Source of the DNA: Azolla caroliniana
Taxonomy: Eukaryota > Plantae > Polypodiophyta
Assembly: GCA_043228905.1 (NCBI GenBank)
Contig: JBHGNT010000005.1
Span: forward strand, 1,612,001 to 1,676,000
Direction: 5' to 3'
Length of the DNA stretch: 64,000 bases
Shown here: positions 9,101 through 40,302 of the stretch, in pieces
Layout of the letters: each line of letters opens with the position of its first letter
Position numbering within the stretch: position 1 is the stretch's first letter
Program-made: the position numbers and the translations under genes
Notes under the pieces: generated by a model
The model's input: only the letters and a program-made list of their open reading frames with translations
Database searches by the model: none
What the model was told of the DNA's origin: nothing

Positions 9101-12004
9101 CAAGTAAGATATAGTAGTAAACTTGTAGCAATGAGAGGAAGTTACAGAAGATTGTAGAATGCCAATGCAAAGACTCCAAATGATATACAACAAGGGGGGA
9201 AAAGTATGATGTAACATGAAGGATCTAATGGCAATGAGGATCTCTCACTTGCTTATGAATGACCTAAAGAAGAAATTGCATCTTTAGGAGTCGGTCCAGA
9301 AAATAGGGTTGGCAATAGGAGGGGGGGACTGTCCATAAGAGTCCACGATGGCTTGGAAAGGAGAGGGGTTATTTTTTTGGGGGGGGGATTGTTCATAAGC
9401 TTCTTCAAATGGAGCTTTCCCTTTTAGGAAGGCACGTGAAAAGCAATTGAAGATGAGAATCATAGTACGTAAAATTCGTGTTCGTCTAACATAACATTTG
9501 TTTTCCTACGTTGGAAAACGAATGTGAATGTTATTCAAACATTCTTGTGATTTTTTTTTTTGTTTTTTCCCATTTTTTAAAAGTTTTTTTCCATTTTTTA
9601 GGCTTATTTACCTCATAATAAATAGTTAATCCAAAAGTATGGTATTTATCATTCTTTGAGGGTATTTTTCTTACGCAAATGATTGAAATGTATGGTACGT
9701 ATGGTTCATACTATGATGAGAATAATGCCAAGGAATGAGAGGGCCTCAAAAATAGAGGCCCAAGCAAAGTTTAAGATGGGAAGTTATCTAGGGAGATAAA
9801 AAGGGGAGTTCCACCTACAAAAAAGAAAAGATGGCGGGACTAATGAAGTAATCGTAATACTCCCAAGATTTAGGGATGTGGTTGGAGATTTGGTGAAATT
9901 ATAGAATAGGTTAATAGGCCTACCAAACATTCCTTGAGAGTAATATAGGTATTTTTCTTCATTAGGGTAAAAAATACATGCTATTTATAGTCCAATGGTT
10001 AGTTTTCGTGGATTTAAGAAAAACTAGACTATTCATACCACAAAAAACTAGAGGTCCTTCACCACTTCCAACTAGGAATTGGGTGTGGATATATTTCGAT
10101 TCCTTTTCCTGTTGATTATTGTTTGATTAGCCTACTTGTGTTATTCTTATTTTTTAACGATGTGTTCCAGGTGATTGTAACTACGCTTATGTCTACCTCG
10201 CATGGTACAACAAACAACAAATGGATTCCCTTTATTTCTCGAGAGATACAATATCAAGTGGTCATGATCACGACTAGGGCATGTGGCCTCTTATTTAAAG
10301 CAAGAAAGTGTATGGAGATTATGTACACGGTTTGTTGGTAATTTAATCATTTCATTTCAATCAAGCCTATGTTAGATATAATCAATGATCAGCCGGAAGT
10401 TGTAAATCTATCCCCATATGTGCTCTTAGAGTGCACATTTTGTGATAGTGCCCCAAATGAGGAGCGGCTAGTGTGCAACTCGACCATATGGGTCGATAAG
10501 GTGTTAATCTAGGAAACTGTAGATGCGAGGACACAATTTAAGAAAGAGTGAAATAGGTAAGAGGATTGGCTAATCAAGTTAACTAGAATATTTTGTGGGC
10601 AAGTTACAATGTACTTAGTCTTGAAGTATGTGCCATTGACTTCAAGATAAGTACTATCTAGCACTAGCATGTACCTAGGTAGTTGGGTCATATTAAATGA
10701 CAAGTCAATTGACAGAAAAGGAATATCTCCACTACTATCAACTGACATGCACATTTAATGTTACACTCAAACCAAACAGAGAATATAATCCACTGTCTTA
10801 CACAATGGTGTATTGATCATTAGTCCCCACTAATTTTGTAGTGAGTTGGTCCAAATCCCATCTAAGCTCTAAGGTGTGAGTGCATGGGTGAACTACCAAT
10901 GTGAGTTACTCTCATATGTAATAGAAGTTTTGATTTCATATATCCATTTCTGTAGTTGTAACTCTATATACCTATCTAATCGATTCTCAATATTTCTAAC
11001 AACCTACACATAGGGCCTCAAGGTCCTCCTTTTTGGTTCCAAGTATCATTTCTGAACATACAAACTAGAATCTGTTCAATATTGCCAATTATTTTAGTGT
11101 AATGTGAAAATACTTCTTCACTATGTCTACTATCTTGATTGTCATATGCCTCATAATCTAGATATTAAATGTGGAAGTGCTGGCACTTGTATTAATACTT
11201 GTTTGTATAATTACACCAAGGCTCTGTAACAAGAACCAAATTTCTAGGTAATTGCCATTGTTGATGTGGGATAGCACATAATATTGTTTGTGGGGGTTTA
11301 GGAAGTGACTTAAGCATTTGTGTTTGTCCAAATCTCCCATTGGTTGTCTTCTTGTAGTTTAGATTTTTGTCTCGCATTTATAACTTTGGGCATTTGTGAC
11401 CCGTGTGGGGGCCATGACATGGAAGGCAATGTACATTCTCATGGATTTCATATCCAAAGGGTTCTTCTTTCTTCTTAGTGTAGTGTGTGACTACTAGGAT
11501 TTGAAGCCATCTTTGTGGGTGTTTGAAATCCGCCATTGAATTTTTGAACCTCATGTCTATAGTGCACGCATGATTGAAAGTTGTGACACTAGTTATGGGG
11601 TGACCGCTCAGAAGAAAGTCGAATGAGGATCAGAAGGGAAGAGTGTCGAAAACCGACCAGAACAGACTCACAAGAAGAGCGAAATTGACACGTTCGTAAA
11701 CATAAGGGGCTGAAGAAATAGCACTGAGTGAGGATACCGACTTGAAAGGAAACGATCGAGAGGTGAACGAACTCAGATACAGATCGAGGATCCAACGAGG
11801 AGCACAGGAGCAGAAACGTGCGAGATATGAACAATCGACACAAGTTCGAAATCGAGAATTGGACACAAGACAACTTCAACAGTCGAACCAATTCGAACGA
11901 AGGACGATGTGAACACGTTGATTCGACCAACTTGGACAAGCCGAAACTTGAGGCTAACCGAATCAGGCTAGACATCGACTTCACCTTTGCCAACTCAACT
12001 TTAT

Positions 12005-12039
12005 AACACCGGGTCATTTAGAACATGTAATATGTCGCA
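12005..12039 (+). repeat. Left terminal inverted repeat
   Basis: Imperfect inverted match to 18804-18838. Confidence 0.85.
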
Positions 12040-12827
12040 TTCCTTTATTGATAAATACATGAGATGTCAAGAATTACTATTTGTGAACAAACTTTCAAGA
12101 ATGTATCACGCATGCGCACACGACTTTTAAAAACCTCACTAAAAAATATAGTTAATATTATCAAGATTTGAAATTTAACCTATATTTTCTCAATTTACAC
12201 ATAAATTTATCCGACTCTTAGGTTAGATTACGGGAATGCATCCCCATCATAATTGTAATATGCTTCATTGTACATAATGTTGAATTCGAATCCAACTTAA
12301 CAAATTTAGAAATGCAACTGTGTTGCTATATTTGTCTCTAAATCCTATAAAGATTGTTATATTGAATTAGTAAATAGCATTTTTGGATATAATTAGAAAC
12401 ATATTCGCAAATGAATATCGCATGATATACCACACATGCCCAAAAACTACTACGAACATTATATCCCAATCATACATGAACACTGTGAATGTATTATCAA
12501 GTGAGCAACAACGTTGGCTTAATATTATTGTGTTTACTAGAAACTCAATAACCAAGATTAAAGACAACATAGATCATACAATAAAGCTTAATTCAATTAT
12601 ATTAATCAAGAAACAATTAGAACCAACATTTGTCATACTATGGATAGTTCATCATCTTCTATCAATAAAAATTATACTTAACCACATACTTTACGAGTCA
12701 ACCTTTGCAAACATATTATAGACACTTAAAGTTCGAGACACCAATCGAATAGTGTAAAAAAAATCTTATATTACAAAACAAGTTTAGGGTTATAAGTTTT
12801 TAGTTACAAATACAAAGTATTATACAA

Positions 12828-15800
12828 TCACTCCATTAGGAGGTCTGGAACAGGTTGTTCTACAAGATCAGCTGGCAATTGTGTTGCACCTACATGGTCT
12901 GTCTCCTCAGTTGAATCTTGTATTTGATCAAACCCCGATGCATCTTCATGGTCAACAAGATTCCCTCTTTCTTCGTCTATAGGTTCCATCGGCTCTCTAG
13001 AGGTTAGCTAAAACATCTCAGTTTCATTGATATGCTTTGCCCCAACCTCTTGGTCCTAATCGGGACAATCCTAGATGCCTTGGATCCTCATCTTAATAAA
13101 ATTGACTTGCCCGGGGTCCTTCTCTAATGCGACGCAGTTCCTGAACAGTTTAAGAGAGCATGCAATCGTCGTTCGTAAACAAACAATCACACATGCAAAA
13201 GTAATAAAACAAAGATAGGAAATTCTATTTTATTTTAAGAAGAATTGATTAGACTTATGAGATTACCTGTACCAGAAAATAAGTCGAGCACACAATCATC
13301 ATGGTTCGAGAACAACTCGACCAATTGATTAATCAATCGTTGGGGCTTTTGATATGGGTTTACAAGACTCTTGTTGCCAGACACATGGCACAATTTCTTC
13401 ATTACAGCTGGGCACATGATATAGTTGACGACGTTCTGCTCATTCACACGTGCCCGAGCCGAGCCTTCTTCTTAGAAATAACGTCATAATATCCCACACA
13501 CAAATGCTCCACAACGCTCACCATTCAATCACCGGGGGTACGAGTTATGTTTGTTTTAACCCTATTTTGTAATTGAATTGAAACAAGTTAATATATATGT
13601 AGTAAGCACCATAGAATCCATATATTAAATATATAGTAACATAAAGCTTACCAATGCATGTGTTCGGTAGCATGGCATCTCGACTTCAATGTAGTAGTGA
13701 CCGATAAAGCCTGGCCCATACTATGAAATATAACGATTCGCCATAATGGAGCCATGGTCAGCTCTACAAAGTCTTTTACCATATTCTCTATTTGCGGATA
13801 TTTGTATGGTACATCGTCGTATGTAGAGCCTGATATCCGGAATCCATACGGTATATCCGCAACGAGCAATGTATAATGTCTCTTGGGTAATATGTCAAGC
13901 ATATTACCCACATCACCATTATAAAGACTATAGTGCAGTTGTTGGAAAGGATCAACCTTGTGAAAAAAACTTTTCACAGTATCTAAGCCCTCAGGCACCT
14001 CGAGCTCCTTTCCTTTTGTCATTCGTTTCTCATATTTGGCTTGTTCCAAATGGGTGATGAAGACGCCTAGTATGCCTTCATTGTTGTCACCTATTTTCTT
14101 TGAGCGAGGTGGTTTCTGTAATCATATGTTTTGTAAGAAGATACCCATTATCCTAAAATGAATTAATATTTGTAAAACATACATACCCATTCTCTAAACA
14201 CAATGAAGAATTCTTCAAGAGCCTTGTATAATGATGTTTTGGGACACAATTGCCCCACCGCTTCCCACGTAGGCAGGGTCACTTTTTTCATCATCAACTC
14301 TTGTATCTTCATATAAACCTCATGGCTAAAAATTAAAAGAAAGTAAGTTTAGAATAAAGAGCAAATCAACATATCCATACAATGAAAATAATTCATCACA
14401 TAGAGTACTCACTTTTGAAACTATGTGACCATTTCATCAAGGCTGAACTCATTGGCGGTCACTCTTGGTAATACAGATATTAATAATCTGCCATCTTTGA
14501 TTCCTTGCAATGATTGCCAAGGAAGCAACTTCATATCCTCAACTAATTCCACTTTTGTGACTTAGATTTCATCTCCACTTGTGGGTCAAGCTTAGCCTTC
14601 TTTGATCTTTGACCCTTTATTTCTTTTTGCTCCCACATACTAAAAATTTGATCTTGGAGGTCCCACACCTCCCCTATTGTGAACGCAAGTTGAAACCACG
14701 AGTCATATTTCCTCGGGCCTTCAGACTTGGTGCTTTCGTCAATTGTTATCCCCACTTCAAGTAGACATTGTCGTCGCAATCCAGGATGTAGCCTAGAACC
14801 AGATTTTTGCAACGCATCAAGATACTTGTGATGGAACCAGATGCGCTCGATACATGACATCTTCTGTCTGTAGTCATTATCATTGTTATGATCCCAAGCT
14901 AGCAACTTGGCTTCTTCATGTGTAAGGCCAACGTACACTTTACATTCTGTATATTTGAAGAATGGGGTAAGAGGATACTCTTTCACAAGTTGACGTCGAG
15001 ATTCAGTAGAGTGGGATCCTCCAATCACGTCGTATGTGAAGTCATCAACCGAACTGTACTTAAAGTCAGCCATTGTTGGGCACTGATCAAGGTCTACCAT
15101 TACTAAGAATGGCACTGTAACAGTGGCATGTGGATTTATCTTCATTTTTCTTTTTAAGTTTTGCCCATCCACTGAATGTGGCTCTCTTATTTCTAGAGTT
15201 CGTCTTCCTGTTTTAGGATCAATGGGTGGCCTCTAAATAGAGGAGATCGGCAAGTGAAATAGTTGTCCTTTAGGGACAATTTTCGTCTTTACAATGTTTG
15301 CTCTGATCCGATTTTGCTTCGAGGTGAGTATTCCCAATGCAATGTGGTTCCCTGGAGGAATAACTTCGAGCTCGGTATCTTCCTCATCTTCCACGAACTC
15401 GAGTACCTTAGGCTCGTCCTCCTCAAGTTGCTACCTTTTCTTGCACTTCTTATGTTCCGGTTTTGATTTCTTTGTAGAATTCGGTGGTGTGGTTGCTTGT
15501 GCGACCATCAGCTCTCCCTTAATATAAGGACGCAAAGCAACACTCAAATTATTTTTGGTTTGAACATCTTTTTTCAAAGCTTTTGGGTGGCCAGAGTCAG
15601 TTACGAAATTTTGTTTATCTATCCTGACTCTACGCATCCCCACCGAGCTATCAACATCAAACAAGAGGTTCAATGAGTTGTTGTCTTCATATTCAATGTT
15701 CTTTACATGGCCATAGGTGAAGGTCTTCCCCACCTGCAGCTTGCCCTGACCTTCAGATTTCGCAAAAATAAGGAGCAAATCTCCTTCTGGCTCGATATAG

Positions 15801-16057
15801 ATTAATGTCCACTTGACATGAGGGTAGCTCTTTAGGCGAGGCTCCCCACTACTCTTTTCGCCTAAAGTGTTCGTCGTGTATCCGACAGAAGACTTTGAAG
15901 TCCCATCACCTAGCAATCTTCTTTCCCTTGTTCATGTTGCTGACGTTGGTGTCAACTTGACAGGGGAGGCGAAAACTGGAAGTCTTGGTTGCTCTGTGCT
16001 CATGTGCTCTTTTGTTGCTTGAACGTGATAATGGCAATGGGAAGATGACTTTCCCAT
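12828..16057 (-). pseudogene. ParB/Srx-like domain + beta-class N6A/N4C DNA methyltransferase, five exons, about 960 codons reconstructed
   Basis: Exons 16057-14413, 14325-14187, 14115-13652, 13561-13267 and 13174-12828 join in phase. Motifs in order: YDVIGGSHSTESRRQL (ParB-like), LLVADIPYG (motif IV), WVKTN, NPYQKPQRLINQLVELFS, VLDLFSGTG|TTIACSLKLFRNCVALEKD (motifs X-I-II). Several in-frame stops, two frameshifts and one mutated acceptor. Confidence 0.85.
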
Positions 16058-16198
16058 ATTTATTTATTTATTTAAATAATTTTTTAAAATTGTTTTTAAA
16101 CATGGTGCTTATTATAGAACTAAACTTGAGCCTATTTTGGACTTAGTTGATCTTAGTTACCCTTACTCAAAATATCCTCAAACTCGAGTAAAAATTCA

Positions 16199-18568
16199 AT
16201 GTTTTCTATTGAGCCTTTTAAATTATTTGATAAATCGTTATTCTCATTCGAGGAATATAACCATGTTAATAATAAACGGTGTCATATAAAGTCAAACGAT
16301 GATCGAGAGCAAAGTTCAACGTCACTTTTTTCGATAGAGCCTTTTAACTTAGGTAAAATAAGAAATATTAAAGTAGATACAAATCATGAAGAGTCTAGTT
16401 TATCGAATGTTAATGAGGACTGTGTCAACAAGCCTCTAAATTTTCGAAGAGTTCCTTGACAAGTGAGTGTTAAATGATATAATTTTCTGTGTTCGGAACG
16501 CCAAATTGCAATTGATATATGCAAGGTATGTTGTGGGAGCCTTTGTCTATCAAAATTTGGAAAGGCAAACTTGCGGGGGTTGCGACAAAAGTATTCTTGA
16601 TTGCCAATATGCAACTTGTTAAGGACCATATGGCAGTGTCTTGTTCTCAGGAGTTGGAATATTACCGTTCAATTACTATGAAGAGTTGTCGAGTTGCTTT
16701 TAAAATTGCCTATAGCATCAAGAACATGAGGCTACAAAGAATTCAACATCGATTACTTAAGGGGTGGTGGGTATCTTTTAACAATACAGAATGTACATGT
16801 AAGGGTCTAATTGGGTGACATGTTGTTAGATGGATGGATATATATTTCTCGAAGCAATGTGATGTTATGGCCACCAATGGAAAGTTACATTTGTCAGATA
16901 ACTTCACTCGTCGTGAGGTATACCAAGTGTATAAGGATGACATGTTATTGGAAAGTGTACCTTACATACAATATCGACATTTTAATCGTTTATGGAGATC
17001 GAAGTTTAACAATGTGGTCATACCCTGCAAGGTCTGGATGGGTGTTTGTTCTATATGCGCGAGTTTAAAAAGCATGACAAAGAGTGGGACAACAGATGAA
17101 GGAATAACAAAATATAAGAATTTATTGAGAGAACATCGAGAAAGGCAGGCGTTGGAAATATCTATAGTTATGCACCATCGTCAAAAAGGGCTTCAATTGC
17201 CAGCAAGATATATGTGCTTGATTATAGATGCGATGGATCAGAAGAAAACTTGTTTGCCACATTTTCGAAGGTTGCCCAAGGATGTTGGAGATGAATGCCT
17301 AGTGTAGATGCACTTAATAGGATGTCTTCCATATTGTCAGACAATAAGGCCTCAAGTATTCCTAACTTATCCAAATATCCATAATGACCCTAATCTTATA
17401 ATGACAATCATGCAAAGAGTTCTACAGAGTTGGAAAGGTTTACTCCCACCAGTACTATATATGCAACTTGACAACACGGTGAGAGAAAACAAGAACTCAA
17501 AAAAGTTTAAGCATGTTAGTAGACCAAAAAAGTGTGGTCGGTCATAACCAGATCACGTTGTATGCCAAACAATACTCATCTAGTTCGCAATGGGATCCAC
17601 AAGACAGATGTAGGCTCTTATTGCATTTCCTAGATGCAATAATCTATGGTGCTGAGCAAATGCCGTATGACGACCATAAAAGATTGGTCGTTGGTAGTTC
17701 AATTGAAGAGCAAAAGATATATTGGATGCGGTGCCTTGAGGAAAAACAGAAAAATATTGAGGGAACCAAAAAGTACATTGGTGATCAAGATGTGGATTGG
17801 CGGGATGTTTTCTCTAATCATCAACATACAATATTAGATAACCACTTTACAAGGTACTGGCCACTACAAAATCAATTCGAATGCGCGCTTGGTGGCCCAT
17901 CAATGGCGAGCACGACTCCTTTACAACCACTAGATAATCTTGAATTAAATAATCTAGTTCGTCCACGACAAAGAGATATTTACGTGGGACCAAGATTATC
18001 GCATGTTGCATGGGCGAGGTGGCAAGGCAATCTACATGAGCTACAAGTTGGTATGTTCGTTGCAACATTAGCTAGGGGTGATATGTTGGGCCATCCCTTC
18101 TGGATTGCCAAAATCATTAAAATTATTAAGGATGATGAAGGCAATCAAGTAAAATCTATTGTGGTTCATTGGTATCATACCTCTTCCAAGTACTCTTTAG
18201 AGATGGTTAAGGATGTCGAAGGCACAAGCAGAAAGCGGAGAAAAAAGAATTTACCAAGCACGTCTACTCTAACACTTGATAATGTCGACATACTCATGTT
18301 TGACTTCCCCTTGACCAAAACAGGTCATCTAAGACAGACTACAATCAAGATAATAAAGGAGAAGATCCCAGATGTGCCTGTTGACGCAATACAGAGACGA
18401 ACAAGAAGTATGTCGACAAATCATGATGACGTTGGATTGCAATTGGATGAAGACAATGCATTGGTTGCTAGTGATGATGAGGATGAGACCTCACAAAGCT
18501 CTTCTAGTTCATCGGGTGGGTCTGAAGGGGAAGGCGTATCTCTGGGAAGTGATGGATCTCATATATGA
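16199..18568 (+). pseudogene. Sola-like (DUF7869-type, by recollection) DDD/E transposase with C-terminal Tudor/BAH-like beta barrel
   Basis: Joined ORFs give CKVCCGSLC, CRVAFKIAYSI, YFSKQCDVM..GKLHL, CSIC, LIIDAMDQKKTCLPHF, LYMQLDNTVRENKN, then LQVGMFVATL...PFWIAKIIKI...IVVHWY. In-frame stops at 16457, 16816 and 17305; frameshift/deletion near 17510. Confidence 0.75.
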
Positions 18569-18803
18569 AATGTAAATATTGTATGTTACATTAATATGGC
18601 AATTCACAAATTTGTAATTTTTGTACGTTCTCTTGTACATTTCACGTGTTGATTATTAGGGGCATTTTTTGAAAGCCCTAAATTTTTGGACATGGTATAA
18701 ATCAATATATTATGATTCAATTTCCAAAACCCTTTACACATGTAATGGTCCTTTTTGTGAAATGACCTACTTTGTGCCTTTTTTGGACGGATTGTTCTTA
18801 AAT

Positions 18804-18838
18804 TGTGACATATTACCTGTTTCAAATGACCCAGTGTT
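18804..18838 (-). repeat. Right terminal inverted repeat
   Basis: tgtgacatattacctgtttcaaatgacccagtgtt; inverted match to 12005-12039. Confidence 0.85.
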
Positions 18839-19083
18839 TTTATGCCGATTTACTTGTAATATAGATTTAGATTAATTTTGTAATCTAGGTTTACGGGGGA
18901 GATAACCCCAATCACTTGTACATGTAGGAAAGAGTAGTCCTTTTACGAGCCTCAAGGAGTTTGTTGGCATAAAAGGTCGACTCCTTCCACTTTGTAACCT
19001 AGTGTAAACCCATCTAAAGAGTTAGGGCTTAATATCTAAGCAATAACCTAACATTGTAAAAAGCAGTCTTGTATCTTGAGTCT

Positions 19084-19085
<2 letters not shown>

Positions 19086-19123
<38 letters not shown>
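19086..19123. repeat. (GA)n microsatellite
   Basis: Direct reading of the sequence. Confidence 0.97.
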
Positions 19124-19125
<2 letters not shown>

Positions 19126-19229
19126 AATGTATAACGAAAGCTCCCATTAGAGTTGAAACTATGTCTACGTTTCCATTATTTCTTCTGTCATATTCTCTAT
19201 GTTGTTTGCTGAGCACATAACCTAGGTCC

Positions 19230-20277
19230 TTACTTACTTCCCCGCATTCATTCCATCACGGTGGCGCCCAAATCAAATAGCCACATTCGTACATCTTGTG
19301 CATTGTACAAGATCACACATGTTGATGAGGCTTCTAGTAGGACTTCTCTTGACAATAATTCGACACAATGAATTTGGTTGGCGGTTGATGACTGGATTGA
19401 GTTGGAAGAGCCTCTGTTCCGCCTGAATCTTCAGCTTCTACCCTACTTATTCAATGACTAACATTTGGCAACTTGGTGGCCGACCTTTCTGTAATATGTG
19501 CAATAGGCGTTCGAAGGCGCACCTCTCAACTTCGACCATTGTCGGTCATTTCTCCTTCTCTGCCTGCTTTGATCATGGTCAGTTCTTTGAGTCATTCCCT
19601 TGGATAAGTGAGCTTCAGCAATGTCATCGTGCCTGGTAAGTCCAATCGACTTTCTTTGAAGCTCTTTCGACAATACCACTCTGATTGCTTCGTCAAGCTA
19701 CTAGTGACGATCGTGTAGAACACTTCCCAACTCGTCAGGAAGCTCGAAAGGAGTGCATGTGCCTTGATTTCTTCTTCAAAAGGCAGGCCTTGCGAGGAGA
19801 GTTCCATCAACACCCGGCTAAAGGTGTTGATATGGGAGGTTGTCGCCTCTATCTCCCTTATCTTCATATTGAATAACTGTCGAATCAAGATGAGTTTGGT
19901 GGAACTCGACTTCTTTTCGTATATCAATTGAAGTTTCTCCCGTAGATGTAGTCGACTCTTTTGCCATATTGATGCATTCCAAATCGGATTGTCGATCTTG
20001 CAATCTCATCAAACGACCGCCATTCTTTGGTTGTCATCGTCGATGGTTTTTTGTTGTGCCTGATCGCTTTGATATGACGTTTGATGATCAACACATCTTG
20101 CATCATCTCCTTCCAAAGGGCAAAATTTTTTACGTCGAACTTTCTGATTTCACAACCTGTACCAGATGTTGAAGCCATTGTTCTTTTGAAGGTGATTTGT
20201 TTGGCCTAGTCCTTTCCTTTAGTGTTCTACCTCTTCTTATACTAACGTTGCCAAGTTCCAAGATCGCTCTGACACCA
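19230..20277 (-). mobile_element. Decayed Ty1/copia 5' part (PBS, gag, zinc knuckle, start of protease)
   Basis: GCEIRKFDVKNFALWKEMMQD (copia gag N-terminus), YEKKSSSTKLILIRQLFNMK, CTYYRKVGHQVAKC knuckle, WLFDLG protease start. tRNA-iMet-type PBS TGGTGTCAGAGC at 20266-20277 (minus). Confidence 0.85.
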
Positions 20278-24728: not shown

Positions 24729-26585
24729 TTAGCAGGTGTTGATACCATCCTTACAATCGGCCGTCAAGAAGCCAAAGGTCTCGATAGTCTTCTTCGCCTT
24801 CAGCGCAACCTCGGTGTCTACCTCGCTTCTCATGTAGCCATCAAACTCCACAGGGTTTCCTCCGGTGAGTTCCATTGTCTCATTGTACCAAAGGCTATCC
24901 TTGGCCCACAATTCGCTGAAATCGTCGATGGTATGGGCACCTCGGTAGACATCCTTGAAAGCTCCGAAATAGTTGGGGTCTCGCTCGTTGGTCGCAATGT
25001 ATACGATCCTCCATGTGTCGATTTGATCCCTCACCTTCTCTATCAAGGATTCCACGGAGGTGTCCGCGTCCAGATTCGGCCACAGCTCCTTGTTGCTCGC
25101 CTTCTCGCCTCTCACCACATGCACCACATCGAAATCCCACTCCAACTTCCCACATATGGCATTCACAATGTCCATGATCCTCTTCGATTTCCAAAGCAGG
25201 TGCCACGGCCTCTGTATCACCGTTTCCGTCTCGCCCTCGCACACGCGGTACCAGTAATTGTCGGGCTCGGGCGCCTCAAACTTCCTCATGATGATGGTGC
25301 TCTCGTCCTTCTCGAGCTCCATCGGGGTCACCTTCGTGTCGGTCACCTCTCTGAAGGAGGCCTGGTTGTCAGGGTGAGCTTGGTTCCACTGGGTCCATTC
25401 TTCGAGGAACTGGGACTGGGGCACGACAGAAGCCGAGTCTTTGAGGTGGGCGTAGTCGAAGTAGAATCGGAAGTCCTTCCCATCTTCGTCGGAGTGGCCG
25501 GGATTGTGGGACGCGGAGAGGCAGAGGTTGAGGTCCATAACTAGGGTTCTTTTCAAGTATTGTGCTTCTCCCAGTGCACAAAGGAAGCTCCACGTGTAAT
25601 GGTTCATCTTCTTGCAGTGGTCTCCACCCCTTCCATAGAAGAGGTACTTGGACTGAGGGAAGGAGCGGACCTCGGCCGGCTGCACCACGGTGGGCACGGA
25701 ATCTTCGATCACCTCCACCTCCTCCATGACCGTCAGGTTCTTCTCCTCGGCGGCGGGGAAGGCCAGCTCGTTCATGGTCGCCACATTCCCCTCCATGTCA
25801 TGCTTGTGGAGATGCTTCCTGGATTTGGAAGCTCTGCCTCTGGTGGGTTTGAAGGATTTGGCATTCTTGCCGGAGTGCCATCCGTGGGCGGTAACGACGG
25901 CATAGTTGCAGGACTCATCGATGGAGAGGGAGAACCTCCGGTAGTCCCTGTACTTCCTCCATGACTTCTCCTGCTTGGGCCGGAACTTCCACGCGACATC
26001 GCATTCAGTCTCATCGTCTGGCCTGCCCCCGACAGGGGCCTGGTAGGAGAAGAAATCCAGATCTGGGAAGAGCTGGAGGTTGTAGCTGATGATGGCGACA
26101 AGTACGCCCGGATCGGAGCAATTGATGGCACTTCCGGTCCGGCCATCGCAAGTGGCAGTGTCCGCGTTATGGATCTCCTGTTGTTGTTGTTCCGATGAGA
26201 CTACAACCTCCTCCTCCTCTGTATTAGTGCTGGTAGTGCTGCTCTTCCCTTCATCCTGTTGTGTGAGGACCAGGGTATTGAGAGTGATGGCCGGGCCCTC
26301 GACCTCGGAGGCGGTCTCATTCTCGGCCGCGGAGAGGCTGAAGTCCTCGCCCGTCCGGAGCACCGAGTCATCGGTCCGGAAGGTCGCGTTCTGGACCGCG
26401 CTTAGCACCTGATCCAGCGCCTTCTCGGGCTCCGCCGCCCACGGGTCGGGAGGCTGGTAGCGGAGCGACACGACCGTGAGGATGAGCACCCCGAGGATGA
26501 AGCACGCGAATGCCGCATTGCTCAGGCCCTTCACAAGCTGCTGGATCAGGCTCTGATCTGAGGCATTGCCATGGGACTTCTTCAT
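24729..26585 (-). CDS. SUB1: SUB1-like (Arabidopsis At4g08810 family) type II membrane protein, O-fucosyltransferase-like; intact single coding exon, 618 aa
   Basis: N-terminal TM segment, then family motifs CDVAWKFRP..KSWRKYRDYRRF, GGDHCK..WSFLCALGEA, GKDFRFYFD, PEPDNYWYRVCEG, RPWHLLWKSKR and C-terminal DCKDGINTC, as in SUB1 and its paralogs. Orthology within the family is not established. Confidence 0.9.
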   Translation of the reverse strand: MKKSHGNASDQSLIQQLVKGLSNAAFACFILGVLILTVVSLRYQPPDPWAAEPEKALDQVLSAVQNATFRTDDSVLRTGEDFSLSAAENETASEVEGPAITLNTLVLTQQDEGKSSTTSTNTEEEEVVVSSEQQQQEIHNADTATCDGRTGSAINCSDPGVLVAIISYNLQLFPDLDFFSYQAPVGGRPDDETECDVAWKFRPKQEKSWRKYRDYRRFSLSIDESCNYAVVTAHGWHSGKNAKSFKPTRGRASKSRKHLHKHDMEGNVATMNELAFPAAEEKNLTVMEEVEVIEDSVPTVVQPAEVRSFPQSKYLFYGRGGDHCKKMNHYTWSFLCALGEAQYLKRTLVMDLNLCLSASHNPGHSDEDGKDFRFYFDYAHLKDSASVVPQSQFLEEWTQWNQAHPDNQASFREVTDTKVTPMELEKDESTIIMRKFEAPEPDNYWYRVCEGETETVIQRPWHLLWKSKRIMDIVNAICGKLEWDFDVVHVVRGEKASNKELWPNLDADTSVESLIEKVRDQIDTWRIVYIATNERDPNYFGAFKDVYRGAHTIDDFSELWAKDSLWYNETMELTGGNPVEFDGYMRSEVDTEVALKAKKTIETFGFLTADCKDGINTC

Positions 26586-32990: not shown

Positions 32991-33780
32991 TGTCGAGATA
33001 TTACGCAAGTGCGTGTGAAAACGAGGCGGGACCGCGGGGGTCTCGAACCAAAGAGCAAGCGAGGGAGGAGAAAGAGAGAGAACCGGCTACGCAGGACCGG
33101 GGATACACAGGGACACGGCCCTGTAGCACGGAGAACGCGAACAGACACCGACACAGACAGATGCGAATGACTAAATATGTGTATTAACAAAAATGGCTAA
33201 CACGACTACAACCCTCGATGGGGCACAGGTTGGTTACAACCGAACAGGCCGGCGAACAGATGCCGATGCCTGTTCGCTTCGACGCACAAACGGGGTAGCA
33301 GGTCGGAGGTGCTGCCGGAAGCACTCGGGCGTTCCTCGAAACAGCGCGAGCCTCCTCGGAACCCTGCACAGAAAGCTATGGAGCTCGAGAAGGAAGGAAA
33401 CACAGAGAGAGAGAGAGCGTCCAGAAACGGTCCGACAGCACTTCGTCCTCTTTGCGCGAGATCCCCGCAACAACTCTTTCCTGCTCCTTATATAGGCCGT
33501 TGAGCAGGCCGTCGCGTCAGCTTTATTCCCTGTCCCTTTTTGACAGGGATCCGCTCCGTTTTTCACGCATCCGCGTAGTTACGCCGCCGACTCGTACAGT
33601 TCGCGCGCGCGACCGAAAAGACTGTTCGCGCGGTCGCTGTCTCTACTTGAGTTAGGGCCCGTTCCTGCCGATTATCCTCCTAATTCGCTTCTATGTACAA
33701 CTTGGAGCGTGCGCGCGTGAAGAACCGGTTCCCACGCCTTGGTGCGCCGGTTCCGCCTATGGACGGTTTTCTTCACGACA
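32991..33780 (-). repeat. 3' LTR of element A (790 bp)
   Basis: TG...CA; identical by eye to 39511-40302 except one GA unit. Confidence 0.96.
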
Positions 33781-39510: not shown

Positions 39511-40302
39511 TGTCGAGATATTACGCAAGTGCGTGTGAAAACGAGGCGGGACCGCGGGGGTCTCGAACCAAAGAGCAAGCGAGGGAGGAGAAAGAGAGAG
39601 AACCGGCTACGCAGGACCGGGGATACACAGGGACACGGCCCTGTAGCACGGAGAACGCGAACAGACACCGACACAGACAGATGCGAATGACTAAATATGT
39701 GTATTAACAAAAATGGCTAACACGACTACAACCCTCGATGGGGCACAGGTTGGTTACAACCGAACAGGCCGGCGAACAGATGCCGATGCCTGTTCGCTTC
39801 GACGCACAAACGGGGTAGCAGGTCGGAGGTGCTGCCGGAAGCACTCGGGCGTTCCTCGAAACAGCGCGAGCCTCCTCGGAACCCTGCACAGAAAGCTATG
39901 GAGCTCGAGAAGGAAGGAAACACAGAGAGAGAGAGAGAGCGTCCAGAAACGGTCCGACAGCACTTCGTCCTCTTTGCGCGAGATCCCCGCAACAACTCTT
40001 TCCTGCTCCTTATATAGGCCGTTGAGCAGGCCGTCGCGTCAGCTTTATTCCCTGTCCCTTTTTGACAGGGATCCGCTCCGTTTTTCACGCATCCGCGTAG
40101 TTACGCCGCCGACTCGTACAGTTCGCGCGCGCGACCGAAAAGACTGTTCGCGCGGTCGCTGTCTCTACTTGAGTTAGGGCCCGTTCCTGCCGATTATCCT
40201 CCTAATTCGCTTCTATGTACAACTTGGAGCGTGCGCGCGTGAAGAACCGGTTCCCACGCCTTGGTGCGCCGGTTCCGCCTATGGACGGTTTTCTTCACGA
40301 CA
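39511..40302 (-). repeat. 5' LTR of element A (792 bp)
   Basis: TG...CA, adjacent to the PBS, followed by GCGC. Confidence 0.96.

Follow-up and report, generated by a model that had tools for sequence, protein, structure and literature searches.

Why would a DNA transposon of a fern carry, beside its transposase, a gene for a bacterial-type amino-DNA methyltransferase (MTase)? We addressed this question for an element in the window, the 64,000-nucleotide stretch of Azolla caroliniana DNA analysed here, and for its relatives at other loci.

The element is a mobile unit with defined ends

The original prediction had placed 35-bp imperfect terminal inverted repeats (TIRs) and a TTTAT target site duplication (TSD) around two divergent genes. 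The two TIRs match at 30 of 35 positions, each is flanked by TTTAT (Table 1), and assembled contigs bear these boundaries out. In three DNA runs, 22-24 contigs per run carry unrelated flanks that meet the element exactly at 12005 (agreement 0.39-0.41). In three of four runs, host-repeat contigs pass directly from 11999 to 18839, sharing five letters at the joint, so that the empty site has a single TTTAT; run X2 shows a loose end at 12004. Summed over the contigs, depth within the element exceeds that of the flank by a factor of tens to hundreds, which is not a copy number. A fuzzy search of the window with the first 25 nt of the TIR, allowing up to six mismatches, returned no further TIR copy. 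At other loci the TIR match is reproduced: both TIRs were found in four relatives (L006, L040, L043 and L067), and 35 of the 38 element ends found start with AACAC or AACAT, the remainder with ACCAC, ACCAT or AACAA.

The TSD held up at the window copy, where TTTAT is repeated; its length is not constant. It measures 5 bp in the window copy (or 4 bp plus one slipped T) and 4 bp in L040, where an interrupted reading frame is restored by a 4-bp TSD only, and no matching TSD was seen at L006, L043 or L067. Judged by sequence, the boundaries are real and the element is a mobile TIR unit. At 6834 bp the window copy is shorter than L006, L040 and L043 (7594-7805 bp); it is a dead, internally deleted member of a multi-copy TIR DNA transposon family.

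Table 1. Features of the window copy (positions in the window; exons are predicted)
Feature	Position	Strand	Remarks
Left TSD, TTTAT	12000..12004	.	5 bp, possibly 4 bp and a slipped T
TIR, MTase end	12005..12039	+	starts AACAC
MTase predicted exon 6	12828..13174	-	end of SAM-binding region and acidic tail; comparison with L001
MTase predicted exon 5	13267..13561	-	motifs PYQKP, DLFSGTG; PF01555, E 4.1e-7
MTase predicted exon 4	13652..14115	-	catalytic motif IV D-I-P-Y, 13857-13846
MTase predicted exon 3	14187..14325	-	helical linker
MTase predicted exon 2 remnant	14413..15909	-	PH-like domain, acidic linker, ParB/Srx-fold domain, helical region
MTase predicted micro-exon 1	15910..15935	-	MNKGKKI...
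AT-rich region between divergent genes	15936..16171	.	putative bidirectional promoter
DUF7869 (Sola-like) transposase pseudogene	16172..18568	+	single exon
TIR, transposase end	18804..18838	-	
Right TSD, TTTAT	18839..18843	.	

Both genes of the window copy are broken

Two divergent genes lie within the TIRs, as had been read from the sequence: the plus strand matches PF25273 (DUF7869, E 2.3e-14) and the minus strand matches PF01555 (N6_N4_Mtase) above the cut-off. Both are interrupted by stops and frame breaks, in agreement with the earlier view that this copy is dead. The transposase pseudogene has ATA at its inferred start and contains four stops; its frame shifts near 16594, and a loss of 258 nt near 17550 removed its third catalytic Asp motif. 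Transposases of the family match DUF7869 at E ~1e-52, and the motifs IDGMDQ, LDNxARENKN and GHTHDHIDQMFS occur in 4/4 intact transposases examined; by analogy, we take their Asp residues to be the DDD triad. A DDD transposase is named as a Sola feature in passages of PMC10741241. The element is likely of Sola1 type, with a DDD transposase.

In the MTase gene, the exon 6 acceptor AG has become AC and internal stops follow, the frame of exon 5 is broken near 13471, and the exon 2 remnant is interrupted by two TAG codons and shifts frame near 14560. Exon 1 is joined directly to exon 2 at AG/GT, the deletion having taken intron 1 together with the palindrome array described below. MSTEQ was considered as the start codon and rejected, as relatives show a micro-exon starting at 15935. 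The TATA-like box of the relatives was not found in the AT-rich region of the window copy.

The order of the predicted MTase motifs is that of the beta class, with DIPY (motif IV) ahead of PYQKP and DLFSGTG (motifs X and I). Among open exons, D[IVL]PY is present in 37/37, PxQKP in 37/38 and DxFSGxG in 35/38. The canonical motif IV is DPPY, class-wide (D/N/S)PP(Y/F/W), from which the window gene departs at the second position; distant homologues read D-[FVAL]-P-[YHR]. The MTase-domain fold predicted from a natural ORF holding both MTase motifs had a pLDDT of 33.5. The motif IV exon alone retrieved no homologues and a profile search did retrieve some. Exon profiles run against viral contigs and prokaryote genomes, in scans that need short exact peptide patterns, returned no close relative.

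The two-gene layout is a family trait under selection

Wherever the sequence extends 3000 nt or more upstream of the ParB core (10 loci), a divergent transposase is present, and wherever it extends 1500 nt or more downstream (40 loci), the MTase exons are present; at L061 the transposase is absent from the 2932 nt upstream. Other copies of the transposase do carry the MTase, which is neither single-copy nor a host gene with synteny outside TIRs: all complete elements hold it within their TIRs, at the same place in three clades. One locus, L039, had been taken for a tail-to-head exception and was rejected as such, being one element inserted into the transposase of another.

For the motif IV exon, 55 of 666 pairs were unsaturated, with a median dN/dS of 0.041; the SAM-motif exon gave 0.112 (55/703 pairs) and the ParB core 0.043 (44/1176). 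The pairs are non-independent, and stop-bearing copies had been removed beforehand (19/68 for ParB, 3/40 and 2/40 for the MTase exons). These comparisons indicate that the MTase exons are under purifying selection, and the locus counts that the two-gene layout is fixed in the family. With this layout and these low ratios, the predicted family of TIR elements joining a Sola-like transposase to a ParB/amino-MTase gene stands.

We also retrieved homologues from Chara, Riccia, a lycophyte, ferns and Ginkgo, as homologues alone, with no linkage of the two genes implied. Two proteins, P0317 and P0093, each lie on an 8915-bp JGI contig, which hints that the genes may be linked in one distant lineage.

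A palindrome array in the predicted first intron is a candidate binding site

In intact relatives, the palindrome CGATRC-N3-GYATCG sits in the predicted first intron of the MTase gene. Of its matches, 168 fall in the 37,092 bp of sequence that lie upstream of exon 2; in 290,284 bp elsewhere there are 14, of which 10 belong to a nested copy in L019. Shuffled sequence gave a mean of 0.12 matches. At 9/9 loci with exon 1 called (18 were examined) it lies 3' of the predicted exon 1 donor, and at these loci it never occurs in the 600 bp ahead of that donor. The arms covary at the R/Y position in 120/131 sites, and the two CG dinucleotides of each palindrome are invariant. Spacings deviate by no more than 1.5 bp from multiples of 10.3 bp in 68/88 cases and in 17/20 family modes (expected 29%), with a period picked afterwards among 10.2-10.5 (10.5 gives 40/88) and families that are related. 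The array is absent from L067, L061 and the window copy. On these patterns it is likely the binding site of the element's own ParB-MTase. The earlier suggestion that the element marks its own ends is weakened, since the conserved candidate site lies in the predicted first intron and not in the TIRs; the palindrome was not found at the element ends.

No Pfam model matches the ParB part of the window gene, and sequence searches with the ParB exon in Pfam and PDB returned chance matches only. Structure comparison of a relative (P0001, residues ~240-381) returned ParB, Noc, PadC, KorB and Srx as the best Foldseek and VIA rows. All of the first 12 Foldseek rows were ParB or Noc, at a best E of 1.4e-3 and a probability of 0.99, and VIA aligned 97 residues with PadC (Z 6.9, rmsd 3.7). 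We therefore predict a ParB N-terminal fold, at modest scores (E above 1e-3, Z under 8). A homodimer model scored 0.38 against 0.00 for the best control, with one of three runs at 0.01, run agreement of at least 28% and pLDDT of at least 66. The mark used for this score was reached by 21/30 solved pairs and 0/23 single chains (17/29 and 0/30 for eukaryotes), and the pass may reflect memory of solved ParB dimers.

CTP binding by bacterial ParB needs arginines (GxxRxxA). At the place of this arginine patch, 24/24 aligned sequences read GGSH[ST]xEA, which makes clamp sliding doubtful. No third gene or ParA partner was seen among the listed ORFs of L006, L040 and L043.

What the ParB-MTase may do

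We propose that the ParB-MTase of this Sola1-type element, as a predicted dimer, binds the helically phased palindromes in its own predicted first intron, that its MTase domain methylates adenines at the array, and that the mark counters host 5-methylcytosine (5mC) silencing or tunes expression, keeping the divergent promoter usable. To this reading as a whole we give a probability of about 0.5. The array would serve as an address label that makes the enzyme sequence-specific for its own family, in the way that VANC is for VANDAL elements in their self-demethylation, an analogy that we draw here. We infer array binding, catalysis, the N6-methyladenine (6mA) mark and its anti-5mC or expression role; the exon structure, the ParB fold and the dimer are predicted. 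CpG observed/expected ratios of intact elements (0.66-0.82) are no higher than that of the neighbouring Copia stretch (0.78), and so give no sign of special protection from 5mC decay. The window copy differs from L001 at 40/231 CpG sites, a larger share than the 123/1302 at other C/G sites, in changes that are not polarised.

Somewhat unlikely, in our view, is that the array-bound protein acts without DNA methylation, as an autoregulatory repressor or chromatin scaffold like KorB, with the MTase fold kept for DNA contact or dimerisation. Such a role would suit an array in the gene's own first intron, where bound protein would block transcription, as well as KorB among the fold matches and a motif IV that differs from DPPY; likewise, MTase domains borne by DIRS1 elements are likely inactive (PMC4738411). 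It is hard to reconcile with catalytic Asp, Pro and Tyr residues and a DxFSGxG motif that are almost invariant across proteins of ~50% identity, and with D-x-P-[YH] maintained in homologues from Chara to Ginkgo.

We consider it unlikely that the protein is a transposition cofactor, which would load at the array and methylate or gather the ends to time excision, or tether the excised element to chromatin until reinsertion. Precedents exist: IS10 excision is timed by Dam methylation, two-gene plant DNA transposons often need a second protein to transpose, and ParB proteins bridge DNA. Furthermore, the two genes remain together and co-diverge (Mantel rho 0.57, p 0.01; 8 loci, about three clades). 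However, the ends lack the palindrome and the clamp-sliding arginine patch is apparently absent, and the transposase has many relatives in animals, for which we know of no such partner.

The proposed adenine mark also has to be weighed against an active enzyme that writes N4-methylcytosine (4mC), for example at the palindrome CG, where it would block 5mC, or that methylates the element's RNA; this we regard as quite improbable. PF01555 includes N6A and N4C enzymes, the palindrome offers two invariant CG dinucleotides, and such enzymes have often been redirected to RNA in eukaryotes. The fused domain, however, is ParB-like and not RNA-binding, and adenine MTases head the ranking obtained with a profile built from 20 family members (DpnA-like 5HEK at E 2.9e-14, MboIIA, CcrM, RsrI), with N4C enzymes lower (8S9M E 4.6e-6, PvuII E 0.003). 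Together, the motif IV Asp and the adenine MTases as best PDB matches favour 6mA. Marchantia DN4MT1 and bdelloid N4CMT are beta-class amino-MTases encoded by host genes and writing 4mC (10.1101/2021.02.12.428880; PMC8885841). The Marchantia enzyme has TSPPY, with Ser as the stated sign of N4C activity, against ADIPY in the transposon MTase, which places the two in different motif classes. The passages covered do not describe either enzyme as transposon-borne, and 'ParB' is absent from both main texts.

We regard it as very improbable that the MTase gene does nothing for the element, whether as captured Pack-type cargo or as a neighbouring host gene. In favour of this reading, no adjoining MTase and transposase locus tags appear among the matches listed (Riccia, 4 MTase and 21 transposase tags; Chara, 4 and 2; Ceratopteris, 1 and 7; Adiantum, 4 and 1), but an MTase inside the TIRs of all complete elements in three clades, at dN/dS ~0.04, largely refutes it for the fern-like clade.

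Known systems with related parts

The earlier reading knew of no description of the pairing; both the pairing and the proposal that such an element marks itself have been published for algae. Passages of PMC12477816 describe Sola1-1_Ec32, a Sola-type TIR transposon whose opposite-strand gene combines a ParB-like domain with an N4C/N6A DNA methyltransferase, and its authors propose that the element's own sequence is bound and modified. The likeness to the fern element is one of layout, of termini and of the description of the proteins. Sola1-1_Ec32 comes from a brown alga (Ectocarpus) and measures 21.5 kb, with 282-bp TIRs and a 1104-aa protein, whereas the fern family measures 7.6-7.8 kb with 33-35-bp TIRs. 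The termini of Sola1-1_Ec32, AACCG, resemble the AACAC of the window element; its TSD is 4 bp and its best blastp match is Sola1-1_PPa. The main text of that report does not contain 'palindrom', and its passages covered here hold no selection test.

In the red alga Bostrychia, the Plavaka accessory genes PAG2/PAG3 comprise a PF01555 methylase gene and a ParB-like gene, according to the part covered of bioRxiv 10.1101/2025.02.11.637652. As in the fern element, the ParB gene adjoins tandem inverted-repeat arrays, and self-binding is proposed. Unlike the fern element, Plavaka has a Plavaka/EnSpm transposase and separate genes, one joining ParB to a 2OG oxygenase and one in which the methylase is fused with a SET domain. 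Prokaryote-like adenine MTases also occur in DAM-encoding DIRS and LTR retrotransposons, for which a use of 6mA has been proposed (bioRxiv 10.64898/2026.05.21.726589). These elements differ in being retrotransposons with an NPP-type DAM domain and no ParB, in hosts with AMT1, and the portion covered of that report holds no DNA transposon case. Our family has DIP in a TIR DNA transposon and lacks the NPP catalytic triplet in a retroelement.

Bacterial beta-class adenine MTases (DpnA-like 5HEK, M.MboIIA, CcrM, M.RsrI) and phage phrog_67/phrog_498 share the order IV then X, I and a detectable sequence similarity with the fern-family MTase, which differs in being spliced, fused to PH-like and ParB domains and equipped with a D-[IVFAL]-P-Y motif IV. 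Likewise, bacterial ParB-parS and KorB share the predicted fold, the predicted dimer and clustered palindromic sites, the latter present in relatives and deleted in the window copy; unlike them, the fern family has no ParA gene, GGSHS in place of the arginine patch, and intronic sites. We found no land-plant description of the pairing in the literature, and Repbase entries such as Sola1-1_PPa may hold cases.

Implications for 6mA in land plants

Enzyme-written DNA 6mA in multicellular plants is disputed. In this family a candidate enzyme can be named, a binding site for it is predicted and some copies are intact, making plant 6mA testable at defined loci. It extends the ParB-MTase pairing from algae to the 5mC-rich genomes of land plants, where a transposon-borne counter-mark has an obvious use, and a ParB-MTase recognising a 15-23-bp palindrome could be a targeted DNA-marking tool. 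It is possible, and we suggest it tentatively, that a Sola1-type lineage spans streptophytes from Chara to Ginkgo, with intronic ParB/parS-like addressing and local 6mA in land plants, whose own DNA 6mA pathway is considered lost. If so, the element would be a sequence-specific anti-silencing device assembled from parts of bacterial type, and genuine 6mA signal in non-flowering plants could well stem from it.

Mobility, boundaries and class of the element

The original prediction described a transposon bounded by 35-bp terminal inverted repeats (TIRs) that encloses two divergent genes, and our data bear this out. The TIRs are identical at 30 of 35 positions, carry TTTAT at either flank and form the longest inverted pair within 10-21 kb of the window; the plus-strand gene matches DUF7869 and the minus-strand gene N6_N4_Mtase. 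Host-repeat contigs in three of four public DNA runs join 11999 to 18839 with 5 letters shared. Because 22-24 contigs per run, in each of three DNA runs, extend from position 12005 into unrelated flanks, the window element is a member of a multi-copy mobile unit. The excess contig depth at its left TIR suggests that this end is common to many non-autonomous or sister families.

At L040, the locus of a relative, an interrupted retrotransposon gene returns to frame only with a 4-bp duplication, and the target site duplication (TSD) in the window is 5 bp, or 4 bp if a T run has gained a base. Flanks at the related loci L006, L043 and L067 show no TSD match, which we infer to result from repeats collapsed during short-read assembly. 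According to PMC10741241, Sola elements are DDD transposons whose TSDs measure 4 bp. The termini read AACAC in the window element, against AACCG for the Ectocarpus transposon Sola1-1_Ec32 (PMC12477816). By these features the class is likely Sola1.

Coordinates of features in the window and at related loci
Feature	Position	Strand	Remark
Element (window copy)	12005..18838
TIRs	12005-12039 / 18804-18838
TIR segment	12005-12042		summed contig depth about tenfold or more over adjacent internal sequence
ParB-MTase pseudogene	12828..15935	-
ParB region	14546-15232	-	P0001 residues 235-537
N-terminal beta domain	about 15560-15880	-	P0001 residues 54-167
Transposase pseudogene	16172..18568	+
Repeat around element	11590-12004, 18839-19200		likely LTR of a Copia element
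(AG)n tract	near 19080-19122
Copia gag-pol remnants	near 19590-20205	-
GC-rich ORF	24732-26585	+	618 codons, intact-looking; probably a host gene
Nest of GC-rich retroelements	32 to 64 kb		includes the Gypsy-like element
Direct repeats	32991-33780 / 39511-40302		792 bp, at ends of Gypsy-like element; 99.7% identity, hence a very recent insertion
Nested element	L019:3280		L006-like element in intron after exon 5 of L023-type element
Nested element	L039:4040		another family element in transposase gene of L044-type element
Complex repeats	L043:10952-15592		about 4.6 kb, direct and inverted, flanking the element; likely subterminal region of another transposon

The two genes travel together

The ParB-region ORF matched 23 proteins at 67-88% identity, one of them named (Ceratopteris richardii), and a profile built from 22 of these gave 161 confirmed loci. 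Among the best 80 of the 161, where the majority of contigs are too short for both genes, a transposase is present in 12, 11 of them divergent with the layout of the window. Wherever a contig among the 80 extends 3000 nt or more upstream of the ParB core, the divergent transposase is there (10 of 10); a 2500-nt cut-off gives 10 of 11, L061 being the one without. MTase exons occur at 40 of 40 loci whose contigs reach 1500 nt or more downstream. L039, the twelfth transposase locus, was considered as a layout exception and rejected, being a nested insertion. Recurrence of the ends, proposed as a check, was found: both TIRs are present in L006, L040, L043 and L067.

In L006, L016, L040 and L043 the transposase ORF is uninterrupted, spanning 829-897 codons from stop to stop, and three acidic motifs are conserved in it. 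A 258-nt deletion in the transposase of the window copy removed the third Asp motif, and both genes of this copy are dead, as was anticipated.

Searching with a profile for MTase homologues returned 165 proteins at E ≤0.001, with named species in 13 of 19 checked (Chara braunii, Riccia sorocarpa, Diphasiastrum complanatum, Adiantum nelumboides, Ginkgo biloba). Plant relatives of the transposase also occur in Chara, Riccia, Adiantum, Ginkgo and Ceratopteris, at the level of co-occurrence in a genome. The nearest named hits point to a fern-like, non-flowering plant as host of the window. Within the homologue set P0202, P0180, P0284 and P0328, the single Chara gene model CBR_g41648 comprises two ParB-MTase units; in other public models, which have the look of annotation chimeras, MTase exons are fused to P450-like or retrotransposon sequence.

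The ParB region and the palindrome array

Comparison with intact relatives, from sequence alone, predicts six exons for the MTase gene. The long-exon model of the homologue P0001 (mean pLDDT 57.6) contains a ParB/Srx-fold domain. Its N-terminal beta domain is well predicted and weakly PH-like (Z 4-5.6); it weakly resembles the M18BP1 SANTA domain (Z 5.6) and PH domains (Z about 4.5). A predicted homodimer of the ParB region scored above the mark (0.38 versus 0.00 for the best control) with one of three runs failing, and the pass possibly stems from solved ParB structures already familiar to the predictor.

In relatives, the 37 kb upstream of exon 2 contain 168 copies of the motif CGATRC-N3-GYATCG, which AA and TT flanks lengthen to a palindrome of about 23 bp (shuffles, 0.12); the remaining 290 kb contain 14, of which 10 sit within one nested copy. 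Its arms covary at 120 of 131 sites. Array position was scored at nine loci, out of 18 examined, that have a callable TATA-like box and micro-exon 1; in these nine all palindromes lie 3' of the exon 1 donor, in predicted intron 1, and the 600 bp on its 5' side contain none. Spacings peak at 31-32, 40-43, 50-53, 63 and 72 bp, and 17 of 20 family modes deviate by no more than 1.5 bp from a multiple of 10.3, a period picked post hoc across related families. This pattern suggests proteins bound to one helix face. The window copy has no palindrome sites because a deletion joined exons 1 and 2 at AG|GT.

Proposed function of the second gene

We favour, with a probability of roughly 0.5, the following reading: a protein dimer would bind the candidate palindromes in predicted intron 1 and methylate nearby adenines, and the resulting mark on the divergent promoter region would keep the element expressible. 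Against this reading counts the second residue of motif IV, which is non-canonical. The ParB motif is without the arginine patch, and intact elements show no CpG protection signal relative to the neighbouring Copia stretch; both also weigh against it.

That the second protein is an autoregulator without catalysis is unlikely. Its MTase motif order, IV (DIPY), PYQKP, DLFSGTG, is that of the beta class, each motif being near-invariant in open exons (37/37, 37/38 for the PYQKP type and 35/38 for the DLFSGTG type). A role as transposition cofactor is slightly less probable still; transposase and MTase gene co-diverge (Mantel rho 0.57, p 0.01; 8 loci in about three clades). The family profile ranks adenine MTases over N4-cytosine MTases and phage MTase families were likewise matched; a writer of 4mC or of RNA marks is improbable. 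Passive cargo is very hard to credit beside median dN/dS values of 0.041 and 0.112 (two MTase exons) and 0.043 (ParB core), from unsaturated, non-independent pairs only, copies with stops having been dropped beforehand.

Related systems are known. In the brown alga Ectocarpus, the TIR transposon Sola1-1_Ec32 already pairs its transposase with an opposite-strand gene for a ParB-like domain plus an N4C/N6A DNA methyltransferase, and its authors propose that the protein binds and modifies the element itself (PMC12477816). Bostrychia Plavaka elements, of a red alga, have inverted-repeat arrays beside a ParB gene (bioRxiv 10.1101/2025.02.11.637652), DAM enzymes occur in retrotransposons (2026 preprint, bioRxiv 10.64898/2026.05.21.726589), and ParB-linked MTases occur in chlorophytes, chytrids and haptophytes, with few N6A MTases in land plants (PMC4738411). 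In the literature searched, some key sources apart, no land-plant description of a ParB-MTase transposon was found. The feature is real and of a kind known but barely studied; our analysis adds the land-plant setting, evidence that the catalytic motifs are under selection and, for the candidate binding sites, their place in the predicted intron and their helical phasing.

By language-model features the ParB region is similar to fungal DUF3723 proteins (score 0.96, 183/256 features), PF12520 being found on 78% of the cluster. DUF3723 is a cargo of Starship elements. If this likeness and the Starship association are true, ParB-like genes would recur in large eukaryotic mobile elements.
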